Shown here piece by piece: positions 1 through 55,549 of a stretch of DNA of 64,000 bases. The notes under the pieces are model-generated. The model ran no database searches, was not told where the DNA came from, and saw nothing but the letters and a program-made list of their open reading frames with translations. Position numbers and translations under genes: made by a program. Origin of the DNA: Patescibacteria group bacterium (lineage in GTDB: Bacteria > Patescibacteriota > Minisyncoccia > Phycocordibacterales > Phycocordibacteraceae); assembly GCA_024653825.1 (NCBI GenBank), contig JANLHF010000039.1, positions 6,945 through 70,944 of the forward strand, given 5' to 3'. The first letter of the stretch is position 1. Each line of letters starts with the position of its first letter.

Positions 1-1617
1 CCGCACCTGCGCTTTCTTGAGAATCAGGTAAAGAAGTTGGAACGCGCTGATGCGTTGCGCACCGATCTCGTCGGCCTCGCGCAGACCTACTTCGCCATTG
101 AGGACGCGTATCTCGCGCAGGAAAAAGAAAGAGTCATCGGAGAGAAACGCGATGCAGCAGAACGGCTTGCGGTAGCGAGCGCCGAGCTCGATCGCATCGC
201 AGATCCGAAGTCCGCAGACCACGAGACTGTGAAGCGCACTGAGGCTTTGCGGAAGGCGGAGCGGGAAGTGAGCGAACTTTCTGCAGAGCGCGCCACACTC
301 TCACGCGACATAGGACGACTGGAAGGCGCTCTGACCGAAGTGAAGCGTCGGGCCACTTCAGCGGCGCACGAGCCATATGCGAAGGTGTCGCGCGAGGAGC
401 TTGAAGCACTACACAGTGAGGTTGTACGACAGGCTGAAAACGCCGGAAACAGTAGCGAATCTCTGCGCGCTGCGCTTGATGCGATTAAGCGTACGATACA
501 ATTCTTTTTTTCTCGCTATGGCTCCCCCAGCGATGAGAAGTTTTCTGAAGAGGAAAATACGGCGTTTCGACTGGAACAGGAGCGTACCGCGCTTGCGGAG
601 AAATACACAACGGTTTCCGCTGATCTTGAGAGGGCAGAAACTTCGCGCGCGCGTGCGCGCGAGGCGATGGTTGCTCTTGAAGAGACCGGTCGCGATATTC
701 GCCGCCATATTCTGGACTTCGCACAGGCGAAGGCACATGAAGAAGGCGAGGTGGCAAAGTATGAAGCACGCGAATACGAGCTCGGTGTTCTTACTGAAGA
801 ACTTGAACGAGATAAAAGGGAAGTTCTCGCGATTGGTGGGACCGCCGCCCTCTCTTATGCATCGCTCTCACAACTGCCGAGCGAAGATCGCAAGACACAA
901 GAAGAGCGCCAGCGTATTCTGGAGCGCACAAAGATCCGTTTAGAAGAAGCAGGTGGGACAGGCGAAGAGCTTCGACAGGAGCATAAAGAGGTGTCTGAGC
1001 GAGAAGCATTCCTCGCCACCGAACTCGACGATCTCGCGAAATCAGCGGCGGGTCTGCGCGAACTCATCCACGATTTAGATACGGAATTACAGAAGCATTT
1101 CTCCGAAGGGCTCGCCAAGGTCAACGCTTCGTTCGGTGAATATTTTGCACTTATGTTCGGCGGTGGTGGCGCACGGCTCACGCTTGAAGAGCCTGATGAA
1201 CCGGACGAAGACGACCTTGAGTCTGAAGAAGAAATGGATGAATTGCCGAAGGAGAAAGAACGTCAGGGTATAGAAATAGCGGTGAATCTGCCGAAGAAGA
1301 AGGTGCGCTCGCTGATGCAACTCTCGGGCGGGGAGCGCGCGCTCACCTCTATCGCGCTCATATTCGCGATGAGTCAGGTGAATCCGCCACCATTTTTGAT
1401 ACTGGACGAGACTGATGCCGCGCTCGACGAGGCGAACAGCCGTCGCTATGGGGACATGATAGAAAACCTCGCGAAGAAGAGTCAGCTCATCGTCATCACC
1501 CACAACCGCGAGACCATGAGCCGCACCGGCATCCTCTACGGCGTCACGATGGGCGGCGACGGAGTCTCCAAATTATTGTCAGTAAAATTCGAAGAAGCAG
1601 TACAAGTAGCGAAGTAG
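1..1617 (+). CDS. smc: Chromosome segregation protein SMC, C-terminal part (5' end outside the window)
   Basis: The frame is open from position 1. The product is a coiled-coil region followed by the C-terminal ABC signature and Walker B region (LSGGERALTSIALIFAM...LILDETDAALDE). Confidence 0.85.
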   Translation, partial: PHLRFLENQVKKLERADALRTDLVGLAQTYFAIEDAYLAQEKERVIGEKRDAAERLAVASAELDRIADPKSADHETVKRTEALRKAEREVSELSAERATLSRDIGRLEGALTEVKRRATSAAHEPYAKVSREELEALHSEVVRQAENAGNSSESLRAALDAIKRTIQFFFSRYGSPSDEKFSEEENTAFRLEQERTALAEKYTTVSADLERAETSRARAREAMVALEETGRDIRRHILDFAQAKAHEEGEVAKYEAREYELGVLTEELERDKREVLAIGGTAALSYASLSQLPSEDRKTQEERQRILERTKIRLEEAGGTGEELRQEHKEVSEREAFLATELDDLAKSAAGLRELIHDLDTELQKHFSEGLAKVNASFGEYFALMFGGGGARLTLEEPDEPDEDDLESEEEMDELPKEKERQGIEIAVNLPKKKVRSLMQLSGGERALTSIALIFAMSQVNPPPFLILDETDAALDEANSRRYGDMIENLAKKSQLIVITHNRETMSRTGILYGVTMGGDGVSKLLSVKFEEAVQVAK

Positions 1618-26409: not shown

Positions 26410-29400
26410 ATGAAAACGGCTTTGCGCGTTTCTTTGCCTGTATTTTTATCCATTCTCGCCTTCGGAGCCTCTGCTCCTCTCGCGTTTGCGGCAAACGAAC
26501 ATGTTGTGAATCTACAGATAGCTACCGTTCCGACACCGGATGCTGGGACCTCTGTAGCAGTTGACACGCCAATGGCTCTTGCGGTTCAGGCCTTTGACAG
26601 CGAAGGCGCTGCAACTAGCACAGATGGCACACTGGTGGTTGCTTTAACTGATGGGAACAACAACGGCGTGTTTACCACCGGTTCGACCGAAGGAGTCTGT
26701 AATGTAGATGTTTGGAACAACGCGACCAACGGGATAGTCACAAGTAAAACTCGAAAAGGCTTCTGCTACAAAAACTCCACCCCGGGCGCATATACGCTAA
26801 CCGCCACTGCGGGAGCACTCAGCACGACGTTTAACGTGACCGTTACCGGCGCAACAATCGTTGGTGGCAATACCTACCCCACAATTCAGGCGGCGATTAA
26901 CGCCGCTTCAACTACGGCACCAGACACAATTAACGTCGTGGCGGGGACGTATAACGAAAATCTAAATATAGATAGACCAGTAACACTCCAATCCGTTTCT
27001 GGTGCCGGTGCTACGACTATCTCAGGCGCAACAGGTATTGTGGTCACCATAAGCTCCAGTGATGTAACCGTGACTGGATTCACCATTACTAATGGAGGTG
27101 TACATGGTATAGGTATCTATTCTGCGGACAAAAGCAATCTGACAATCACGGACAACATCATTACAGGGATAGGTAATAGCAGTGCTGACGTGATGGGAAG
27201 AGGAGTTGTCATTGTCTCTTCGGCAAGTTCAATAGACGGCATAACTATCTCCAATAACCAGATAAACAACATCACTTCCGGCATGCGCACCGGTTCTGCC
27301 AGTGTCAGTGCATCCGGCGTCTCCGTCGGGTGGAGCACGGGAACGGAAGATATTACGAACCTTGTACTGGACGGGAATACCATATCCAACATTAGCGCGG
27401 ACACAAGTCCGTGGAACAGTCCAGGAACAAAAGGTCAGGGCGCTAACGGTATCATCATCAACCACGCCAGTGGCAAAAGTGGTAATACCGGTCGCACGGT
27501 TGCTCCTCAGATTACAAACAACAGCATCAGCAATCTAAGTGGGCTCTGGTCACACGCTATCGGTCTTGAAGGCAATACACCCGATACAGTCTTGAGCAAC
27601 AACACCATCAGCAACCTCTCCAGCACGAAAACACCGAGCGATGCCTTCGCAATCTTCTTTGAAGACAATGCGGGCAAGACCACGGTCTCAATTGACGGCG
27701 TTACTTACGACGCAACCACGACCGTTGCCGTTAATGCCGCATGGAACGGTTTGGGAGGTAATCCGCTCGTGTCGCTTAATGGCGAGTCGTACATCTTTGA
27801 TGTAAATGCATTCTCTACCATTCAAGAAGGCATTAATGCGGTCGCAGTAGGAGGTACGGTAAATGTTGTGGCAGGAACGTATGCCACGACAGGACAGGTT
27901 CTTATCGATAAGAATCTGAACATTGTTGGTGATGCTGCAAACAAGCCGACGATTAGTCCGGCGGCTGATTTCACTGCGACCAATAACGTCGCCGGGGCGT
28001 GGTTCTTGGTCAATGCGGGCGCGACATTCAACTTGAGCAACGTCGTTCTTGATGGCAATGGCAAGAAGTTACAGCAAGGTGTTCGATCACACGGCACGAC
28101 GTCAATTACTAACGTCGATTTCGCTAACATCATCAACAGCACGAGTCCGTATGTCGGGTTTGCAATCGCAAACTTTGGGGGAATGGTTCCCGGTGGAGCT
28201 GGGTCAGATACTCACAGCGCTGGCGGTGCGGCCAGTACGCTAACGGTGACGAACAGCACGTTTACTAACATCGGGCGCGTAGGAGTATTGACCAAGGGCA
28301 CTGGTTCGACCGTTACACTTACCGGGAATACCTACACAGGGAAAGGTGACGGCACATTCCTCGATTATGCTTTTGAGTTTGGTGCCGGAGGGTCTGGTAC
28401 TGCTAGTGGCAACACTATTAGCGACAACCGCGGTGTTGCTAGTGACACCTCAACCTCAGCCGGGATCTTGGTAACTGATTATTACGGAACAGGAACTTCA
28501 GCAACTATTGAGAACAACACGATAACCAACAATACAGATGGCATCGCGATTGGTTATGATGAGGCGGATAACAGCGTTGTCGTTGTTCATAGCAATGCAT
28601 TCGGCGGTAATGTGAATGCGATAAACACCACCCACCCGACTGTGAATGCCATCAACAACTGGTGGGGCAACTCGTCCGGTCCGACCGTTGCGTCTAATCC
28701 AACTGGAACGGGAGACACAATCGTTGAAGCAACACCAGGTACGGTCTCGTTCTTCCCGTGGTACATCAATCCGGGTATGACGATCCTCTCCGATGCAGTC
28801 AGTGACACTGGTGCGATAGATTCCTCCACGGACAACTTCGATGTGGCGGGTACGAATTCTGGGACGGCTGATATTCCGTCTGGAGTTACGAACATCACGC
28901 TAGGAGATAACACCGCACTCGACCTTTCAACCGGATTGAGCGGGGATACGGTTACGCTAAATTCCGGCACCACCGGCGAACCAGTTGTGTTGGCTAACTC
29001 AAACTCGAATGTCGCTGGTATCAGCGCAAGTATTCCTGACGGGACGACAATTACTGGTCCATCGGGATGGGACGGCAAAATAGCGCCTCCGGTCTCTGAT
29101 ACATCGGGCGGGGGAAGCACTCCGGCCGGGTTTAGTGTCGGCGGTACGGTTATCTCAATCGGTTCATCTGCCGGAACACTGACCTTCGATAAGGCGGTGA
29201 AAATTGTCCTGGCTGGTGTTACTGGGACAGTTGCTTACAAACCGGCCCTTTCTAACGACTGGACAACCATAACAACTCAATGTGCCGGTGCGGATGATCC
29301 AAGCAATATTTCTTCGGGCGAGTGTTACTTCACCGATGGGGCGAACACGAATATCTGGACTTATCACTTCACCGAGTTCGGCGGGATGACGCCGACGGCA

Positions 29401-30180
29401 CCGGTCATTACTCCGAGCGGTACGACCTTCCAGGGTTCAATTGATGTGGGGATTGGCCCGACGGTAGATGGTACGACCATTCGCTACACGACGAGTGGCG
29501 ACACTAGCGGTTCCGGTTCCACACCGACCTGCAGTTCCACAGAATACACCGGCGCTCTTACCTTCCACAGCCCGACCGTATTAAATGCGGTGCGTTGTGA
29601 TGGATCAAATAACGTCTCTCCAGTATCCACAGCAACGTTTATCCTCGTTGGTTCTGGTGGCGGTGGAGGTGGAGGTGGTGGAGGTGGTGGAGGTGGCAAC
29701 GTACCTGTTGTCCCAGCAACTCCCGCAACGCCTGCAACTCCGACCGTGACGTCAGCTACTCCCGCAACGCCTGCAACACCGGTGCAAGGACGTGTGCTCG
29801 GTGCAGCGACTTTCAACTTCGCCAACGACCTCCAGATGAACTCCTCGGGAACGGATGTGACCGAACTCCAGAAGAGTCTCATCGCCGAAGGGTTTGATAT
29901 CCCGGCAATAACGAAGGGAGGAGTGAACTACGGCTACTTCGGTGGCCAGACGCGCTCGGCAGTCGTTGCCTTCCAGAAGGCGCGCGGCATCTCGCCGGCG
30001 GTCGGCTACTTCGGCCCGCTCACGCGCGGTGAGCTCAACAAGGGCAGGGTGGTGTCGGCTGTAGCAGGAGGGAATACAAACCTCACGACCGAACAGGCAA
30101 ATGCGATACTCTCGATAATCGAGTCCTTCGGGGCCGATGCATCGGTTGTCGCAAACGTCAGAGCTTCTCTCGGTCTCTAA
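26410..30180 (+). CDS. Large secreted/cell-surface protein with right-handed beta-helix repeats, a poly-Gly and PATP-repeat linker, and a C-terminal peptidoglycan-binding domain
   Basis: It has a signal peptide (MKTALRVSLPVFLSILAFGASAPLAFA) and many NNxISN/ITNN beta-helix repeats. A G15 tract and PATPATP repeats are followed by a PG_binding_1-like C-terminus (YFGGQTRSAVVAFQKARGI). Confidence 0.8.
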   Translation: MKTALRVSLPVFLSILAFGASAPLAFAANEHVVNLQIATVPTPDAGTSVAVDTPMALAVQAFDSEGAATSTDGTLVVALTDGNNNGVFTTGSTEGVCNVDVWNNATNGIVTSKTRKGFCYKNSTPGAYTLTATAGALSTTFNVTVTGATIVGGNTYPTIQAAINAASTTAPDTINVVAGTYNENLNIDRPVTLQSVSGAGATTISGATGIVVTISSSDVTVTGFTITNGGVHGIGIYSADKSNLTITDNIITGIGNSSADVMGRGVVIVSSASSIDGITISNNQINNITSGMRTGSASVSASGVSVGWSTGTEDITNLVLDGNTISNISADTSPWNSPGTKGQGANGIIINHASGKSGNTGRTVAPQITNNSISNLSGLWSHAIGLEGNTPDTVLSNNTISNLSSTKTPSDAFAIFFEDNAGKTTVSIDGVTYDATTTVAVNAAWNGLGGNPLVSLNGESYIFDVNAFSTIQEGINAVAVGGTVNVVAGTYATTGQVLIDKNLNIVGDAANKPTISPAADFTATNNVAGAWFLVNAGATFNLSNVVLDGNGKKLQQGVRSHGTTSITNVDFANIINSTSPYVGFAIANFGGMVPGGAGSDTHSAGGAASTLTVTNSTFTNIGRVGVLTKGTGSTVTLTGNTYTGKGDGTFLDYAFEFGAGGSGTASGNTISDNRGVASDTSTSAGILVTDYYGTGTSATIENNTITNNTDGIAIGYDEADNSVVVVHSNAFGGNVNAINTTHPTVNAINNWWGNSSGPTVASNPTGTGDTIVEATPGTVSFFPWYINPGMTILSDAVSDTGAIDSSTDNFDVAGTNSGTADIPSGVTNITLGDNTALDLSTGLSGDTVTLNSGTTGEPVVLANSNSNVAGISASIPDGTTITGPSGWDGKIAPPVSDTSGGGSTPAGFSVGGTVISIGSSAGTLTFDKAVKIVLAGVTGTVAYKPALSNDWTTITTQCAGADDPSNISSGECYFTDGANTNIWTYHFTEFGGMTPTAPVITPSGTTFQGSIDVGIGPTVDGTTIRYTTSGDTSGSGSTPTCSSTEYTGALTFHSPTVLNAVRCDGSNNVSPVSTATFILVGSGGGGGGGGGGGGGGNVPVVPATPATPATPTVTSATPATPATPVQGRVLGAATFNFANDLQMNSSGTDVTELQKSLIAEGFDIPAITKGGVNYGYFGGQTRSAVVAFQKARGISPAVGYFGPLTRGELNKGRVVSAVAGGNTNLTTEQANAILSIIESFGADASVVANVRASLGL
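29656..29697 (+). repeat. Simple sequence repeat (GGT/GGA/GGC)n encoding poly-Gly
   Basis: This is a GGTGGCGGTGGAGGTGGAGGTGGTGGAGGTGGTGGAGGTGGC run inside the surface-protein gene. Confidence 0.8.
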
Positions 30181-48946: not shown

Positions 48947-49465
48947 TTACTGAATCGGCTGTTTGTCGAGAAGAGGGTAGTACTCGGGGCACTCTTTGTG
49001 CGGGATCACCATCAGTGGATCGTTCGCCATGACGAGCGACCTTTCCTCTTCGGTCATCTGCCGTAGATAGAAGAGTGTACAGCGGGGGTTTGTCTCGAAA
49101 CGTTGCAGAGAGACGGGAGTGACTTCTCCTGCCGTGTTAATGACAAAGGTCGGAAGACCCTCTCTGATGAACCATTGTGCGCTGTCGGCCACGTCGATAC
49201 CCATACGCCCATCGAGGAAGGGGAGCGCGACTACGCCGTCGCATTCGGGGAACACGACTTCATGGAAGTAGTTCATGAGGCCGGCGTCTGCGGAGTGTGC
49301 CCAGTGTCGGTACCCTTCTTCGTGTTCTGGCTCGTTCGGATTTTCGACCCGTTTTCTGGATATGTCGAAGTGTTTTGCGACTAGTGCGATAAGCGCCACT
49401 TCGAGCCGTGAACCATACACACTGACTGGGAGGGCAAGAAATGGGAAGAACAGGCGATGATCCAT
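48947..49465 (-). CDS. Uncharacterized protein, paralog A (172 aa) of a tandem pair
   Basis: It shares the ENPN.P.H.EGY, NYF.EV.P.CD..VA.PFLDGR.G and TEEE..LVMA.DP blocks with 49610..50212. Confidence 0.55.
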   Translation of the reverse strand: MDHRLFFPFLALPVSVYGSRLEVALIALVAKHFDISRKRVENPNEPEHEEGYRHWAHSADAGLMNYFHEVVFPECDGVVALPFLDGRMGIDVADSAQWFIREGLPTFVINTAGEVTPVSLQRFETNPRCTLFYLRQMTEEERSLVMANDPLMVIPHKECPEYYPLLDKQPIQ

Positions 49466-49609: not shown

Positions 49610-50212
49610 TTACTTTTTGTCGGGATAAAACCCTGGCGGAACGGGTAGGGAAACCAGGTGCGCCGTCTCGAAAGGGCGCTTCTCTTTGCCGTAGACGAGG
49701 AATGTTCGAAGGCGCGTTTCGATGTGAGGGACAACGAGCCGAGGATCGTCTGCCATGACGAGGATCTTTTCTTCTTCGGTCAGCGGTCGCGGTTTGAAAA
49801 GTCCGCTTTGGTGATTTTCCTCGAAGGCTCGCAGGGAGTCGGGAGTAATCGCATCTTTGTCGAAGTCCATCACGAAGACCGGCAGGCCCTCCGTAATGAA
49901 CCATTTCATTTCGCCTGCAACGCCGAGCCCCACGCGGCCGTCGAGAAATGGCATTGCCACGCAGCTGTCGCATTTAGGCAACACTTCGTCGTAGAAGTAG
50001 TTCATGCCCTTATGATTCGTGGCCGCTAGGCTGGCGCGTTTGGCGTACAGTGTGTAGCCCTCTTGATGGTGCGGCTGATTCGGATTCTCGACACTTTCCT
50101 CGCAGATCTTGAACTGGTCGGTGAGGGCCTTTACCCAGGAGACTTCAAGTCGAGTGTCGTACGAGTTTACTGCGTGCGCGAAGTACGGTCGCATAAGTCT
50201 TTTTTCCATCAC
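49610..50212 (-). CDS. Uncharacterized protein, paralog B (about 195 aa) of a tandem pair
   Basis: It is clearly paralogous to 48947..49465, with about 45% identity over conserved blocks. Confidence 0.55.
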   Translation of the reverse strand: MMEKRLMRPYFAHAVNSYDTRLEVSWVKALTDQFKICEESVENPNQPHHQEGYTLYAKRASLAATNHKGMNYFYDEVLPKCDSCVAMPFLDGRVGLGVAGEMKWFITEGLPVFVMDFDKDAITPDSLRAFEENHQSGLFKPRPLTEEEKILVMADDPRLVVPHIETRLRTFLVYGKEKRPFETAHLVSLPVPPGFYPDKK

Positions 50213-50260: not shown

Positions 50261-50890
50261 CTAGCGCGCCCGTTTAACCCTGTCGAGTGCGACCGCGACC
50301 TCGTACGCCTTTCGCGCGCCATTGATCGCAGTGTGCACCGCCGGTTCCGGTTCGATGTTGAGCGTCCGTAGCAGATGGCTATTCCGCATGCTGTAGTCCG
50401 CAGGTTCGAAGGGCTCATTCGGAACGAGGAGTTCCTGAACTGCCATCGAACGATTGTCGAGTCGAGCGTAGTGGAAGTACTTTGTCTGCAATTCTTCTTG
50501 CGAGATGTTGTTCCACGCGAAGGCGGTCGACAAGAAATTCCAATCGAAGAAAAAATTCTGCCCACGCAGTACCGCAACACCCGGCGCCACATACCACGTG
50601 ACGAAGTTAAGGAACATCCGGAGGCCGTCAGTAAGAGACACGGCGGTGTTCCATTCTCCGCGCGCGGCGCGTGCCGGATAGTGGTTGATGAGATCGGGCA
50701 GACAACGCTCAGGATGTTCGGAGCGTATTTTAATCTCGCCTTCCTCGATGCACTGCAAGGTTTTCGAATCAGCGAGTACCCATCCCATGTCGATAATCTC
50801 GTGCCAAGGAATGAGTGTGTCGTCGACGCGTTTCAATGGGTCGTGCCCGGTTGTTTCCAGATCAAGAAACAGAAAAGGATATGTACGCAT
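50261..50890 (-). CDS. DEDD-family 3'-5' exonuclease (DnaQ-like fold)
   Basis: The Exo I (FLDLETTGHD), Exo II (NFFFDWNFL) and Exo III-like (HTAINGARKAYEV) motifs are present. Confidence 0.6.
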   Translation of the reverse strand: MRTYPFLFLDLETTGHDPLKRVDDTLIPWHEIIDMGWVLADSKTLQCIEEGEIKIRSEHPERCLPDLINHYPARAARGEWNTAVSLTDGLRMFLNFVTWYVAPGVAVLRGQNFFFDWNFLSTAFAWNNISQEELQTKYFHYARLDNRSMAVQELLVPNEPFEPADYSMRNSHLLRTLNIEPEPAVHTAINGARKAYEVAVALDRVKRAR

Positions 50891-51583: not shown

Positions 51584-52540
51584 ATGAATCCCCATATCGA
51601 AGACATCCTGAACGCAGGAGCATACGGACGCGATGTGTGTGTGAACGGTAGGAAACTTACTGAATACGCGCGACGGTGGTTGGGAGAAGAACTACGAATT
51701 CCCGAATGGCGTGAACCCGTGTTTCCGGAAGATGACGAGACGTTCGTACAACTCATCGGCGTCGCTAATGCAATTAACTTCTGCTTTCGCGATCCGGTGA
51801 CCAAACGGCTGTATGAGACGGAGTATCGCGGAGTGAAATGGCGCGGCGCCTTCGGCATGTTCGCGGCGCTAAAACGCGCCCATGAATCGGGCCTCGCCAT
51901 TCTCGACCCACATTATCTGTTGCAGGTGAGTGGCGTCGGTCTGGAACGAATATTCGGCACCAATCCTTCGATGCCGCTTCTTCATGAAAGGGTGCGGTGC
52001 TTATTGTCTGCCGGCCATATGCTGCATCTGTATGCGGGCGGAAAATATAAGGAATTTTTCCAGAGATGTCAGTACCTTGCATTCAACAAAGGCAAGGGCA
52101 TCGTCGAGAGGCTTTCTAAATATGATCCGCGTTACCGGGATGTTTCCTTCTATGCTCCTACCTCACGACGGCTCGTGTTCAACAAACGGGCGAACTTGTT
52201 CCTGATGATGTATCAGGGGAGGGCGCTTGCTTCGGGTGGAAAGTTGCCACTAATCGAGGATGCCGACGACTTCACCCCTCCGGCTGATTATCATGTGCCG
52301 CGCGTGCTTCGACACCTCGGCATACTTGAATATTCGGCTGAGCTCTCGCACGCGGTGGACGAGGGTCTCGAGATCCCTGCGGGCAGTCAGTGGGAACAGG
52401 AGATTCGTATACAAACAGTGGTTGCGATGAGCAAATTGTGTGAGCAGAGCGGGAAGTCGATCGTCGCGATGGATGCGAAGGTCTGGAGCCATCACGGCTT
52501 CGCACGGCCCCAACACATCACAACGACATCCGCGTATTGA
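51584..52540 (+). CDS. DUF2419-like protein, possible queuosine salvage enzyme (Qng1-like)
   Basis: The overall size and several blocks (FNKRANLFLMM, DYHVPRVLRHLGILEYS) recall DUF2419/Qng1. This rests on recalled family features only. Confidence 0.35.
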   Translation: MNPHIEDILNAGAYGRDVCVNGRKLTEYARRWLGEELRIPEWREPVFPEDDETFVQLIGVANAINFCFRDPVTKRLYETEYRGVKWRGAFGMFAALKRAHESGLAILDPHYLLQVSGVGLERIFGTNPSMPLLHERVRCLLSAGHMLHLYAGGKYKEFFQRCQYLAFNKGKGIVERLSKYDPRYRDVSFYAPTSRRLVFNKRANLFLMMYQGRALASGGKLPLIEDADDFTPPADYHVPRVLRHLGILEYSAELSHAVDEGLEIPAGSQWEQEIRIQTVVAMSKLCEQSGKSIVAMDAKVWSHHGFARPQHITTTSAY

Positions 52541-52565: not shown

Positions 52566-52608
52566 GAAAAAGAAAGGGCTCGCTTCTCCCGGAGGAGGAA
52601 GCGAGCCC
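52566..52608. terminator. Bidirectional intrinsic terminator
   Basis: An 11-bp stem (gggctcgcttc/gaagcgagccc) carries a T-tract on the minus strand. Confidence 0.55.
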
Positions 52609-52624: not shown

Positions 52625-55426
52625 TCAGACCGAGTCGGGCAGGAACTCATCCCACGGGAACGGTTCCCCGGACGTGAGATATTTCTGCACCGTCGTCGGA
52701 GTCAGATGCACGACGCTAATCTCGCCGGCATCGGGGCCTTCAGCAGGCAATCCGATGAAGGCAACGCCCGCATTGTTCTCGGCAAGGCCGCCGGCGATTT
52801 CTGCAAAGCCGTCCGTATGGGTCGACGACGGTCCCATCACATAGACATCACCTCCCGCGAACGCTCCCGCGAAGAAGTGCTTGTCGCCCGTGATGTGAAC
52901 AATCGACTTCTCGTCGAGGACGGACGAAGGATTCCCGCGTGCGCGGTTCACCGCCACCCAGCCATGCAGGACGTCTTTCCAGCTGTCGCGTTTCGGCGGG
53001 GTGCCACTTATGTGGAGTCCCCACTCGTAGCCGTCGCCGACCTTCAGCGTGCCGTAGGCAATCCCCAGGTCCTGGAAGAGTGGCCAACGGATGAGGCGGT
53101 CGAGATCGAGACCGGCAAGGTCCGGATCGCCCGCGAGCCTCATACGCAAGATTTCCGCAACGATCGCGCCCTCGTGGAGCATACCGTCGGTCGTCTTGGT
53201 TGCGTGATTGCCGGAGCCGAAATTGATGACCCCGACGTCGCGCATATCGTTCGGTACGTTCGAGAAGTCGCTGACGCCTCTCACCACAACTTTCGCCCGT
53301 TTGGCCGCAAGGAGAATTCCCTTGAAGATATCGGGGTACGGCCGGATGAGCCCGTGGAAGAGCTCCTGGAACTGTCCGGTCAGATAATCCGGCGGACGGC
53401 TCTTCACTTGGTCCATTAGTTCGCGATACAGTTTCCTTTCTTCTCCCTCGCGCACCTTCAGATCACGAATCGTACGGATACGTCTGAGCTTCTGCTCGTT
53501 GTCCGCAAGAATTTCCGCGAACGATCGCCAGTGATAATGCGGGCGCATATGCGTGCCGAAGTGGTTGCCGTGCAGGATGTCGTCGCAGACAAAGAGTCCT
53601 GCGACCGGCGTTGCACCACCTCTGCTTAAGCCCGACTTCTGCATCAGCTCAAAGACCGCCTCAGTGAGGCCGATTGGCATACCGGAGGGGCGATGCAAGA
53701 ATACCCGCATCGATCCGCCGAAGTGCATATCGGTCGCCACCATTAGCCACAGCTTGTCTGCTGGAGCCGGAGAAGGCCCGCGTCGTGGCGCGCTTATTTT
53801 GCGTACCGCTTCTGCCGAGATGAAGTCAGGCGTGATGCCGAGGTCTGAATCAATCTTGATGACGAGCATCCCCCCGTTGAACATGGGGTCAGCCACCGCC
53901 TTCACGACGGGAAGCTTTATGCGAGTGCCACGTGTCCTGTCGAGGATAGGACCCTTATCGATGAGCATCGGCGCTTCGACGAAACCGACCGTGCCGAGCA
54001 TCGAACCACTCAGGTAATTCTCCCGGGAAGTCTTCCGCATGTAGACGGAACGCGGATGCGATACCACGGTCAGGGAGGGCAGGTTGCCTTTCCGTTGCGC
54101 GGGGCCGTAGCTGCCGAGTTCATCGTAGTACGGATTGTTGCTGTCACCGCCGGAGACGAACTTGATGATACTCGCGTTCTTGCCGAAGATGACATGCGCC
54201 GAGTTCTGATCGATGACCTTCGTATTCGGCATATGCTTCTCGATCTCGTGGATCAGGTACGAAAGCGCCTGGTCGTAGACGCGTCTGTTTTGCGTCGGGT
54301 CGAGGTTCGTCATCCGCATACGGCTCACGAGCCGGGACGCATCGCGCGACTCACCTTCGACTTCTTCGTACGCTCTTTGGGCCTCATTCATGGCGGTCTT
54401 GGAGCCACTGTGTCGAGTGTCAGTCAGGTAGACGTGCGCTTCGGCCGCAAGCTTTGCTCGTACATTTGCTTCGGCTTCAGCCTCACGCAGCTCCTGATTC
54501 TGCAGGTAGAGCAGTTCGAAGTACGCCATACGTCGTACCAGCCCGAGTTCATCGGGACTAAGTACGATATACACCGGACCATCGAATTCAGGTCTCCCAT
54601 CAGGGCGAACCATAATCTTGTACCATCCCCGCAGAAGGTCTTTGAACCGTTCGTAGGCGGTGGTGAAGATCGGTCCGAACTCGCCCTTTTTGAGGATTTC
54701 GGCTACGCGGTCGCGATAGTTTGCTGCCATTGACTCGATGTCAATCTCAGTACCGGTCACGAGGTCGTCGAGAAGCCGGTTCGGACCAGTCGTCTTCTGC
54801 CAGGTGAGGCGGAAGAGGCCCCCGCTAATGACGAGTGCATCGCACCGCATCTTCCGTGCTGCCGAAATGCCGGAGCGCGTGAGATTACGTACGATGTCGG
54901 GGTCATACGCGAGGCCGAGCTGAGGCGCCGAGATGAGTGCGATGCGGAACCGATCCGATTTGTTCTTAGGGAGCGCATGGAAGGGTTTGCTATGACTCGT
55001 TTCTTCGAGCGAGTACGGCGGTGCGTCGGTGAACGGCACGCGGAGAATGCCCGGCAAATTTACCGTCTCTTCGCGCGGTGCCGAAGTGCGCCCCTTCATG
55101 TCTTGAAACTTCGCTTCCACGACCCACTCTGGCGGTACGGTACGATTACCTAATTGCTTTTTGAGCACCATATGGAGTTTGGCCGAGGAGTACTTGGCCT
55201 TTACTGCGTGCACCAGAAGATCCTTCCGGTCTTCCCAGAAGATGGCGTCGAGCTCCGCATAAAGACGGGTCTTCGTGATTTCATCCCTATGGGTAGATAG
55301 CGCAGCAGGCAGTTCCTTGATGAGCGTCTTGCGCAGAATATCGAGACTTACCGGAGGACGCTTGAGTCGCATCTTCGCTTCGATCTTGTCCGTAATCCAG
55401 CTGTTGAATGCTTTTATCGTAGACAT
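52625..55426 (-). CDS. Large (933 aa) uncharacterized protein with a C-terminal Mre11/SbcD-like metallophosphoesterase domain and an N-terminal half of unknown function containing coiled-coil
   Basis: The MPE motifs are I LWLMVATDMHFGG, II VCDDILHG, III FGSGNHA and V/VI ITGDKHFF. The N-terminus contains degenerate MPE-like blocks (RIALISAPQLG, CDALVISGG). The gene is monocistronic, with its own SD (AAAGGAG) and terminators. Confidence 0.55.
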   Translation of the reverse strand: MSTIKAFNSWITDKIEAKMRLKRPPVSLDILRKTLIKELPAALSTHRDEITKTRLYAELDAIFWEDRKDLLVHAVKAKYSSAKLHMVLKKQLGNRTVPPEWVVEAKFQDMKGRTSAPREETVNLPGILRVPFTDAPPYSLEETSHSKPFHALPKNKSDRFRIALISAPQLGLAYDPDIVRNLTRSGISAARKMRCDALVISGGLFRLTWQKTTGPNRLLDDLVTGTEIDIESMAANYRDRVAEILKKGEFGPIFTTAYERFKDLLRGWYKIMVRPDGRPEFDGPVYIVLSPDELGLVRRMAYFELLYLQNQELREAEAEANVRAKLAAEAHVYLTDTRHSGSKTAMNEAQRAYEEVEGESRDASRLVSRMRMTNLDPTQNRRVYDQALSYLIHEIEKHMPNTKVIDQNSAHVIFGKNASIIKFVSGGDSNNPYYDELGSYGPAQRKGNLPSLTVVSHPRSVYMRKTSRENYLSGSMLGTVGFVEAPMLIDKGPILDRTRGTRIKLPVVKAVADPMFNGGMLVIKIDSDLGITPDFISAEAVRKISAPRRGPSPAPADKLWLMVATDMHFGGSMRVFLHRPSGMPIGLTEAVFELMQKSGLSRGGATPVAGLFVCDDILHGNHFGTHMRPHYHWRSFAEILADNEQKLRRIRTIRDLKVREGEERKLYRELMDQVKSRPPDYLTGQFQELFHGLIRPYPDIFKGILLAAKRAKVVVRGVSDFSNVPNDMRDVGVINFGSGNHATKTTDGMLHEGAIVAEILRMRLAGDPDLAGLDLDRLIRWPLFQDLGIAYGTLKVGDGYEWGLHISGTPPKRDSWKDVLHGWVAVNRARGNPSSVLDEKSIVHITGDKHFFAGAFAGGDVYVMGPSSTHTDGFAEIAGGLAENNAGVAFIGLPAEGPDAGEISVVHLTPTTVQKYLTSGEPFPWDEFLPDSV

Positions 55427-55487
55427 CTGATTCTCCTTTCAAGTCAAGGATCAAATTTCACCCTGCGAGCAGGATACTCCGCGTATA

Positions 55488-55532
55488 TAAATAAAGAAAG
55501 CGGTGTTTCGTCCTCTTGACGAAACACCGCTT
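55488..55532 (-). terminator. Intrinsic terminator after the small gene at 55550..55831
   Basis: A 15-bp perfect stem (aagcggtgtttcgtc/gacgaaacaccgctt) is followed by a U-tract on the minus strand. Confidence 0.65.
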
Positions 55533-55549
55533 CGATAGCAAAAAATTCG

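Follow-up and report, generated by a model that had tools for sequence, protein, structure and literature searches.

The stretch of DNA considered here, referred to below as the window, comprises 64,000 nucleotides (nt) of contig JANLHF010000039.1 (positions 6,945 to 70,944, assembly GCA_024653825.1) from a Patescibacteria group bacterium. It is ordinary chromosome, carrying rpoB, rpoC, dnaG and genes for RNase R, a Pif1-type helicase and a P-type ATPase. Among the open reading frames (ORFs) listed for the window is one on the reverse strand, with an ATG start, that encodes a protein of 933 amino acids (aa) identical to NUV60_03555, a "hypothetical protein" at NCBI from a metagenome-assembled genome (MAG) of a Patescibacteria group bacterium. 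As modelled, this protein is a single chain with two metallophosphoesterase (MPE) domains, an N-terminal one that has lost its metal site and a C-terminal one that keeps it, and both the architecture and the assignment of the dead and the active half are held with high confidence.

Gene and domain architecture

The 933-aa gene is real, monocistronic and transcriptionally isolated, since a terminator hairpin ends the upstream gene (encoding a 93-aa protein) and an intrinsic terminator of its own follows the stop codon (Table 1). The latter folds at -28.2 kcal/mol (z = -5.6), and none of 200 shuffled sequences was as stable. Among the expression signals claimed in the original prediction, the Shine-Dalgarno (SD) sequence AAGGAG and the terminator hairpins were recovered but the promoter was not, the sigma-70 scan yielding no site within the 70 nt that separate the upstream terminator from the SD sequence, although promoters of the candidate phyla radiation (CPR) may not fit the consensus. 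Rfam and tRNA scans gave nothing near the gene, whose local GC content (0.54-0.58) is that of the rest of the window. The next gene past its terminator belongs to a queuosine-salvage family and is convergent.

The AlphaFold2 model was built on a diverse alignment of 52 sequences, 21-83% identical to the query, on which the conservation figures given below are also based, and it has a mean predicted local distance difference test score (pLDDT) of 91.9 and a predicted template modelling score (pTM) of 0.89. The predicted chain runs from a helical bundle through a conserved non-helical linker into the first MPE, which is split by an antiparallel coiled-coil hairpin, and then through a Pro-rich linker into the second MPE, an alpha/beta domain (558-933) that ends the chain and is itself interrupted by four helices. 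The hairpin, which lies in the N-terminal half, where a heptad-rich segment had been noticed earlier, consists of a 50-residue outgoing helix (291-340) and helices 343-369 and 377-398, and its return arm bears a conserved R369...T-N374 motif and no Cys hook. The charged insert that had been described as interrupting the C-terminal motifs was also found and is helical; within it Q685 is invariant, Q673 is conserved in 96% and R677 in 77% of the sequences, and we infer that it covers the active site as a lid or as an element that binds substrate. The two helical insertions occupy different points of the fold, that of the N-terminal half following the motif III strand and that of the C-terminal half lying between motifs II and III.

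In the model, each half has an MPE fold, with the four-layer alpha/beta-beta/alpha arrangement, because fold searches match each of them to MPE structures. With the full-length model, Foldseek against the PDB placed the PolD DP1 exonuclease first (E 7e-5), followed by purple acid phosphatase, Rv0805 and Mre11, and fold-search values were 13.4 and 13.3 for Pol delta B-subunits, 13.1 for MJ0936, 12.7 for Mre11 and 12.4 for the Pol epsilon B-subunit. PolD DP1 and the polymerase B-subunits are the nearest solved structures, ahead of Mre11/SbcD; the matches also include MPE folds without enzymatic activity, namely the B-subunits, Vps29 and GAP50. The earlier description of the protein as an Mre11/SbcD-like MPE was thus apt insofar as Mre11/SbcD is among the structural neighbours, but DP1 and the B-subunits are nearer and no Mre11/SbcD sequence model matches. 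The hypothesis of a duplicated MPE, also put forward in the original prediction, is confirmed by the fold of the N-terminal half, a degenerate MPE; hhalign of one half against the other finds no detectable sequence similarity (probability 1.2%), so that the duplication has its support in the fold alone.

Table 1. Positions of the 933-aa gene, its predicted domains, motifs and expression signals, and of other genes named in the text. Positions are those of the window unless a locus is given.
Feature	Residues	Position	Strand	Remarks
933-aa MPE gene	1-933	52625-55426	-	ATG start, 933 aa and stop
Shine-Dalgarno AAGGAG		55433-55438	-	6 nt ahead of ATG
Terminator hairpin of upstream 93-aa gene		55497-55533	-	16 bp and T-rich tail
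Own intrinsic terminator		52567-52608	-	14-pair GC-rich hairpin (stem 52576-52608) and UUUCUUUUU; 3' of stop codon
N-terminal seven-helix bundle	1-111	55094-55426	-	net charge +8; W64 94% conserved
Conserved non-helical linker	112-148	54983-55093	-	G126-I-L-R; P148 invariant
Pseudo-MPE, first part, alpha/beta	149-290	54557-54982	-	motif equivalents degenerate
Antiparallel coiled-coil hairpin in pseudo-MPE	291-398	54233-54556	-	after third motif strand
Pseudo-MPE, second part, and Pro-rich linker	399-556	53759-54232	-	beta-rich (402-537); D490 96%
Predicted catalytic MPE, first part	557-635	53522-53758	-	holds motifs I and II
Motif I, TDMHFG	565-570	53717-53734	-	D566, H568, G570
Motif II, CDDILHGNH	614-622	53561-53587	-	D615, D616, H622
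Four-helix insert between motifs II and III	636-710	53297-53521	-	37% K/R/D/E
Predicted catalytic MPE, second part	711-933	52628-53296	-	holds motifs III and V
Motif III, SGNHA	738-742	53201-53215	-	G739, N740, H741
Motif V, GDKHF	847-851	52874-52888	-	G847, D848, H850
Queuosine-salvage family gene		51584-52540		convergent
209-aa DEDD-type exonuclease-like ORF		50261-50890	-	1.7 kb downstream of MPE gene
200-aa paralogue		49610-50212	-	
172-aa paralogue		48947-49465	-	
1256-aa protein		26410-30180	+	
526-aa SMC_N ORF		37-1617	+	
459-aa neighbour		L001:13257-14636	-	
459-aa neighbour		L002:13248-14528	-	called 426 aa
459-aa neighbour		L003:13248-14627	-	
459-aa neighbour		L004:13624-15003	-	
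459-aa neighbour		L005:10551-11930	-	
172/200-aa family		L007:4812-5174		
172/200-aa family		L010:11223-11804		
172/200-aa family		L013:11826-12509		
172/200-aa family		L019:4751-5338		
Split family gene		L006:140-3148		704-aa and 248-aa ORFs

Conserved and degenerate metal sites

The calcineurin-like motifs DMHFG, CDDILHG, GNHA and GDKHF, on which the original prediction was founded, were all found at their places and in order in the C-terminal half, an arrangement that is, judged from the sequence, far beyond chance. They provide the ordered succession that defines an MPE (D-x-H in motif I, an Asp in motif II and GNH in motif III), and in the model each of them comes right after a predicted beta-strand, which is the canonical MPE arrangement. 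Throughout the 52 sequences D566, H568, D616, G739, H741 and H850 are invariant, G847 is kept in 98% and N740 and D848 in 90%; the metal ligands are conserved at 90-100%, so that the loss which had been named as decisive against an MPE was not seen. Motif II reads GD in 9 and DD in 42 of the 52. Motif V is G-D848-x-H850 in the clade of the query and the canonical GHxH in divergent members, and because the corresponding alignment columns hold the textbook D-x-H, G-D, G-N-H and G-H-x-H in these divergent relatives, D848 sits at the position of the first motif V His. No conserved His is present between motifs III and V, where motif IV would lie, in the 52 sequences; going by conservation, E752 (98%) or D872 (92%) may complete the second metal site in its place. 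Metal 1 would be bound by D566, H568, D616 and H850 and metal 2 by D616, N740 and D848, with H741 as the putative catalytic His.

The equivalents of motifs I, II and III in the N-terminal half of the query are LISAPQLG, VISGG and VLSPDE, and the family consensus there is I-N/S-G-x-x-x-G for the canonical D-x-H, T-G-G or T-G-N for G-D, and L-G-x-x-E-E for G-N-H. As the metal-ligand positions are lost in every member of the family, the N-terminal half is a pseudo-enzyme domain. It nevertheless contains an Mre11-like segment, 'N-x-L-R ... D-A-V-V-I-T-G', in which N181 is invariant and R184 is conserved in 96% of the sequences. The sole sequence match to a solved protein was obtained with the profile of the divergent clade, which aligned residues 22-52 of P. 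furiosus Mre11, marginally (E 0.04), to the N-terminal segment fkNaLrlaeakkvDaVviTGnl, where the motif II Asp is replaced by Asn.

Family, taxonomic range and genomic neighbourhood

A word-indexed search found 20 relatives with 48-100% identity, all unannotated, and its repetition with the diverse alignment returned only the same 20. An exhaustive phmmer scan covering 1.84 billion cluster representatives yielded 135 clusters at E<=1e-3, including 92 at E<=1e-30; most of these relatives are 900-1270 aa long and aligned end to end, and those that bear a name come from Candidatus Kaiserbacteria, Niyogibacteria, the 'Parcubacteria group' and MAGs that carry a Saccharibacteria or Patescibacteria label. 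A locus search with the close alignment retrieved seven GTDB species loci, all from Patescibacteria, and no match to the family was found in 50,697 phage records, 72,556 plasmids or the IMG/VR viral contigs. The family is specific to Patescibacteria (Parcubacteria/Paceibacteria-type CPR) and chromosomal. Its most divergent members (phmmer E 1e-17 to 1e-4) are homologous over 796 columns in a profile-profile comparison (E 2e-109); Pfam gave no match on them and their source records say only 'hypothetical protein', which leaves no bridge to annotated families.

Curated models miss the query itself, with no match at E<=10 in Pfam, NCBIfam, PADLOC or, by phmmer, the PDB, and none at E<=1 in PHROGs. 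The 52-sequence profile gave only noise against the PDB, even at E<=10, and about 70 relatives (52+18) scanned singly had no Metallophos-type or DNA_pol_E_B Pfam match; a characterised housekeeping family, another outcome foreseen in the original prediction, was likewise not encountered. The literature contained no description of a tandem or degenerate MPE protein of such a kind, nor of a bacterial DP1 homologue, and a chain of dead plus active MPE with an embedded coiled coil is absent from the searchable literature and from curated models.

Several relatives are extended at the N-terminus. P0012 and P0013, 62-64% identical to the query, have about 110 extra residues with two helix-turn-helix (HTH)-like repeats ('LGVSTRTIDTIKSTLRGG'), for which sub-threshold Pfam matches to HTH_11, HTH_28, HTH_23 and HTH_3 were recorded. 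P0026, P0032, P0043, P0045 and P0057 have 250-390 extra residues forming Trp-rich helical repeats ('KWTSERIADLREHRNDSWQDL...IRRDR'), Myb/SANT-like by eye and without a Pfam match. No fused Pfam domain was found in the long relatives (1150-1270 aa). The family gene of L006, a metagenomic contig, is split into two ORFs, whether by a stop codon, by a frameshift or through faulty assembly; the 248-aa product is 65% identical to the C-terminus of the query.

Around the gene, the window encodes an M17 aminopeptidase, the paralogues of 172 and 200 aa, an RNase T/oligoribonuclease-like protein, a probable membrane protein, uncharacterised proteins of 93 and 240 aa and an amine-oxidase/phytoene-desaturase-like flavoprotein. 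Neighbours at other loci include ClpP, DUF6899, nucleoside deoxyribosyltransferase, IMPDH, PCMT, Lon, ribosomal proteins, SecE/NusG and DsbA-type proteins, and no neighbour is constant across the loci examined. Genes for Rad50/SbcC, a polymerase, DP2/PolB or defence were not found near the gene, either in the window or in L001-L019. The absence of an adjacent SbcC/Rad50 partner noted in the original prediction was thus confirmed; the only SMC-like sequence in the window, a 526-aa ORF matching the C-terminal part of SMC_N (RecN/SMC-type), is not a neighbour because it lies 50 kb away. Three of these neighbours, the M17 peptidase, the amine oxidase and the 172/200-aa family, are met again at distances that vary, even beside relatives of 24-27% identity, which we read as residual synteny through vertical descent, and the persistence of synteny down to such identity argues for vertical inheritance of the MPE gene.

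A conserved partner gene was sought, and the candidates were rejected. DUF6899 and the nucleoside deoxyribosyltransferase gene of L001 and L002 have no relative in the window, and the same holds for a 459-aa protein, hydrophobic-looking and without a Pfam match, that is encoded downstream and convergently where the MPE relatives are 50-64% identical. The 172-aa and 200-aa paralogues have no match in Pfam, NCBIfam or the PDB; at four other loci, members of their family lie within 0.5-2.5 kb of the MPE gene, whose product at one of these loci is only 27% identical, and this could reflect residual synteny or a loose functional link. The 209-aa DEDD-type exonuclease-like ORF matches RNase_T of Pfam (E 0.0026) and oligoribonuclease of NCBIfam (E 7e-4), both below cut-off, and a relative of it occurs near the MPE gene in L013. 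Elsewhere in the window, a further protein, of 1256 aa, combines beta-helix, chitobiase/Fn3-associated and peptidoglycan-binding domains and is possibly a surface or host-interaction protein of the source CPR bacterium.

Proposed function and its alternatives

Mre11 works as a dimer of MPE domains. Together with the DP1/Mre11-like structures and the sole sequence match, this makes a single-chain pseudo-dimeric nuclease the most economical mechanism. The protein would be a cytoplasmic pseudo-dimer composed of a basic helical N-terminal domain, a dead MPE with its coiled coil and an active MPE, the last of which would hydrolyse phosphodiester bonds using Mn2+/Fe2+-type metals. The substrate of this domain would most likely be nucleic acid, DNA or RNA ends being processed exo- or endonucleolytically, because DNA-end nucleases (the PolD DP1 proofreading exonuclease and Mre11/SbcD) are closest to it in structure. 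The dead domain would stand in for the second protomer found in Mre11-type dimers, serving architecture and the positioning of substrate or DNA, and the coiled coil, the basic N-terminal bundle and the HTH-like extensions are candidate elements for binding nucleic acid or a partner. The proposed role is housekeeping in a reduced-genome lineage, whether in repair, in recombination or in the turnover of nucleic acids. Nuclease function of the 933-aa protein is evenly balanced between being right and wrong, and the fuller reading as a single-chain pseudo-dimeric Mre11/DP1-like phosphodiesterase, a nuclease acting in housekeeping and not in defence, likewise has about an even chance of being correct; a role as a repair factor, suggested in the original prediction, is plausible. 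It is more tentatively, and rather doubtfully, proposed that the protein might be a Rad50-independent DNA-end nuclease of Mre11/DP1 type, in which internal duplication replaced the obligatory MPE homodimer and the coiled coil, which Rad50/SbcC normally provides, became built into the nuclease, and that it might act as the main end-processing or proofreading-type exonuclease of Parcubacteria-type CPR.

A phosphodiesterase acting on small molecules or nucleotides (cyclic nucleotides, dinucleoside polyphosphates, cyclic oligonucleotides or salvage intermediates), with the large non-catalytic parts being regulatory or localising, has a low but appreciable probability. Generic MPEs such as MJ0936, Rv0805/CpdA, YfcE, LpxH and Spr1479 act on small substrates, but they are single-domain proteins of 160-320 aa whose hidden Markov models miss the query, whereas 933 aa with two MPEs, a coiled coil and other large helical additions are atypical for such enzymes. 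In addition, the best structural matches and the sole sequence match are nucleases, some relatives have HTH-like N-terminal repeats, and the neighbouring genes are inconstant and usually lie behind terminators or on the other strand. It is improbable that the protein is instead a DP1/B-subunit-like module of a polymerase, i.e., a proofreading exonuclease or scaffold docking on a replicative or repair polymerase, with the dead N-terminal MPE resembling eukaryotic B-subunits and the C-terminal MPE resembling DP1. The phosphodiesterase domain of PolD DP1 (the archaeal 3'-5' proofreading exonuclease, PDB 5IHE) and of the Pol alpha/delta/epsilon B-subunits is structurally the closest to the 933-aa protein. 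In contrast to these, however, the latter is bacterial (CPR), shares 13% identity with them, lacks a Pfam DNA_pol_E_B match and has no recognised oligonucleotide/oligosaccharide-binding fold, the region before each MPE being helical or MPE, whereas in the DP1/B-subunit family such a fold precedes the phosphodiesterase domain and the subunit binds the C-terminal Zn-finger module of its catalytic partner (DP2 or PolB). Its chain combines two MPEs with a coiled-coil hairpin and a four-helix insert, and in the loci examined there is no gene for DP2 or a partner polymerase near it.

That both MPEs are silent and the protein purely structural, its conserved 'ligands' binding a structural metal or a partner, is very improbable. 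The lack of a conserved motif IV His, the non-canonical GDxH of motif V and the presence of non-enzymatic MPE folds (B-subunits, Vps29 and GAP50) among the fold matches would be in keeping with it, but known silent MPEs lose DxH, GD and GNH, as the N-terminal half of this protein did, whereas in the C-terminal half five residues are invariant and two are kept at 90% across divergence to 21% identity, and the canonical GHxH reappears in divergent members. Scarcely any credence is given to an anti-phage or anti-mobile-element effector, which had been the other suggestion of the original prediction. The large size of the protein, its nuclease-like character and its standing alone with expression signals of its own would suit this role, and many defence effectors are unannotated; on the other hand, PADLOC gave no match, phages, plasmids and viral contigs lack the family, synteny down to 24-27% identity indicates vertical inheritance and the local GC content is like that of the window. 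The defence islands that were to be looked for around homologues were not found either, the flanks being variable and of housekeeping character (rpoBC-type chromosome, M17 peptidase, ClpP, IMPDH and ribosomal proteins) with no known defence gene.

Compared with Mre11/SbcD, the 933-aa protein has no Rad50/SbcC partner in the loci examined and no Mre11/SbcD match in Pfam or NCBIfam; one of its two MPE units is dead, its motif V is GDxH, its motif IV His is not conserved, and its coiled coil lies within the MPE protein itself, without an ATPase or a zinc hook. It is DP1/Mre11-like but stands outside both families by their defining features. A likeness to Dbr1 is seen in a divergent subclade (P0133, P0134, P0136, P0142, P0144 and P0149) that has Cys in place of the motif I Asp ('GCxH'), a substitution typical of Dbr1 and hardly ever seen elsewhere in the MPE superfamily (PMC4176325). 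The query, unlike Dbr1, keeps the normal Asp and has no lariat-recognition loop, no corresponding C-terminal domain and no sequence match.

A protein of 933 aa that was retained through divergence to about 21% identity is unlikely to be dispensable. CPR bacteria (Patescibacteria) have very small genomes, and a third or more of their proteins have no assigned function. Fold, active site and architecture are here assigned to a family that curated models miss, with a hypothesis that is testable by point mutants; its chemistry and fold are familiar, but the architecture is unusual. Should the protein prove to be only a small-molecule phosphodiesterase, a very large superfamily would simply gain another divergent member; should it be a Rad50-independent nuclease of Mre11/DP1 type, it would bear on DNA repair or recycling in symbionts with reduced genomes, and the DP1/B-subunit-like branch of MPEs would reach beyond archaea and eukaryotes.

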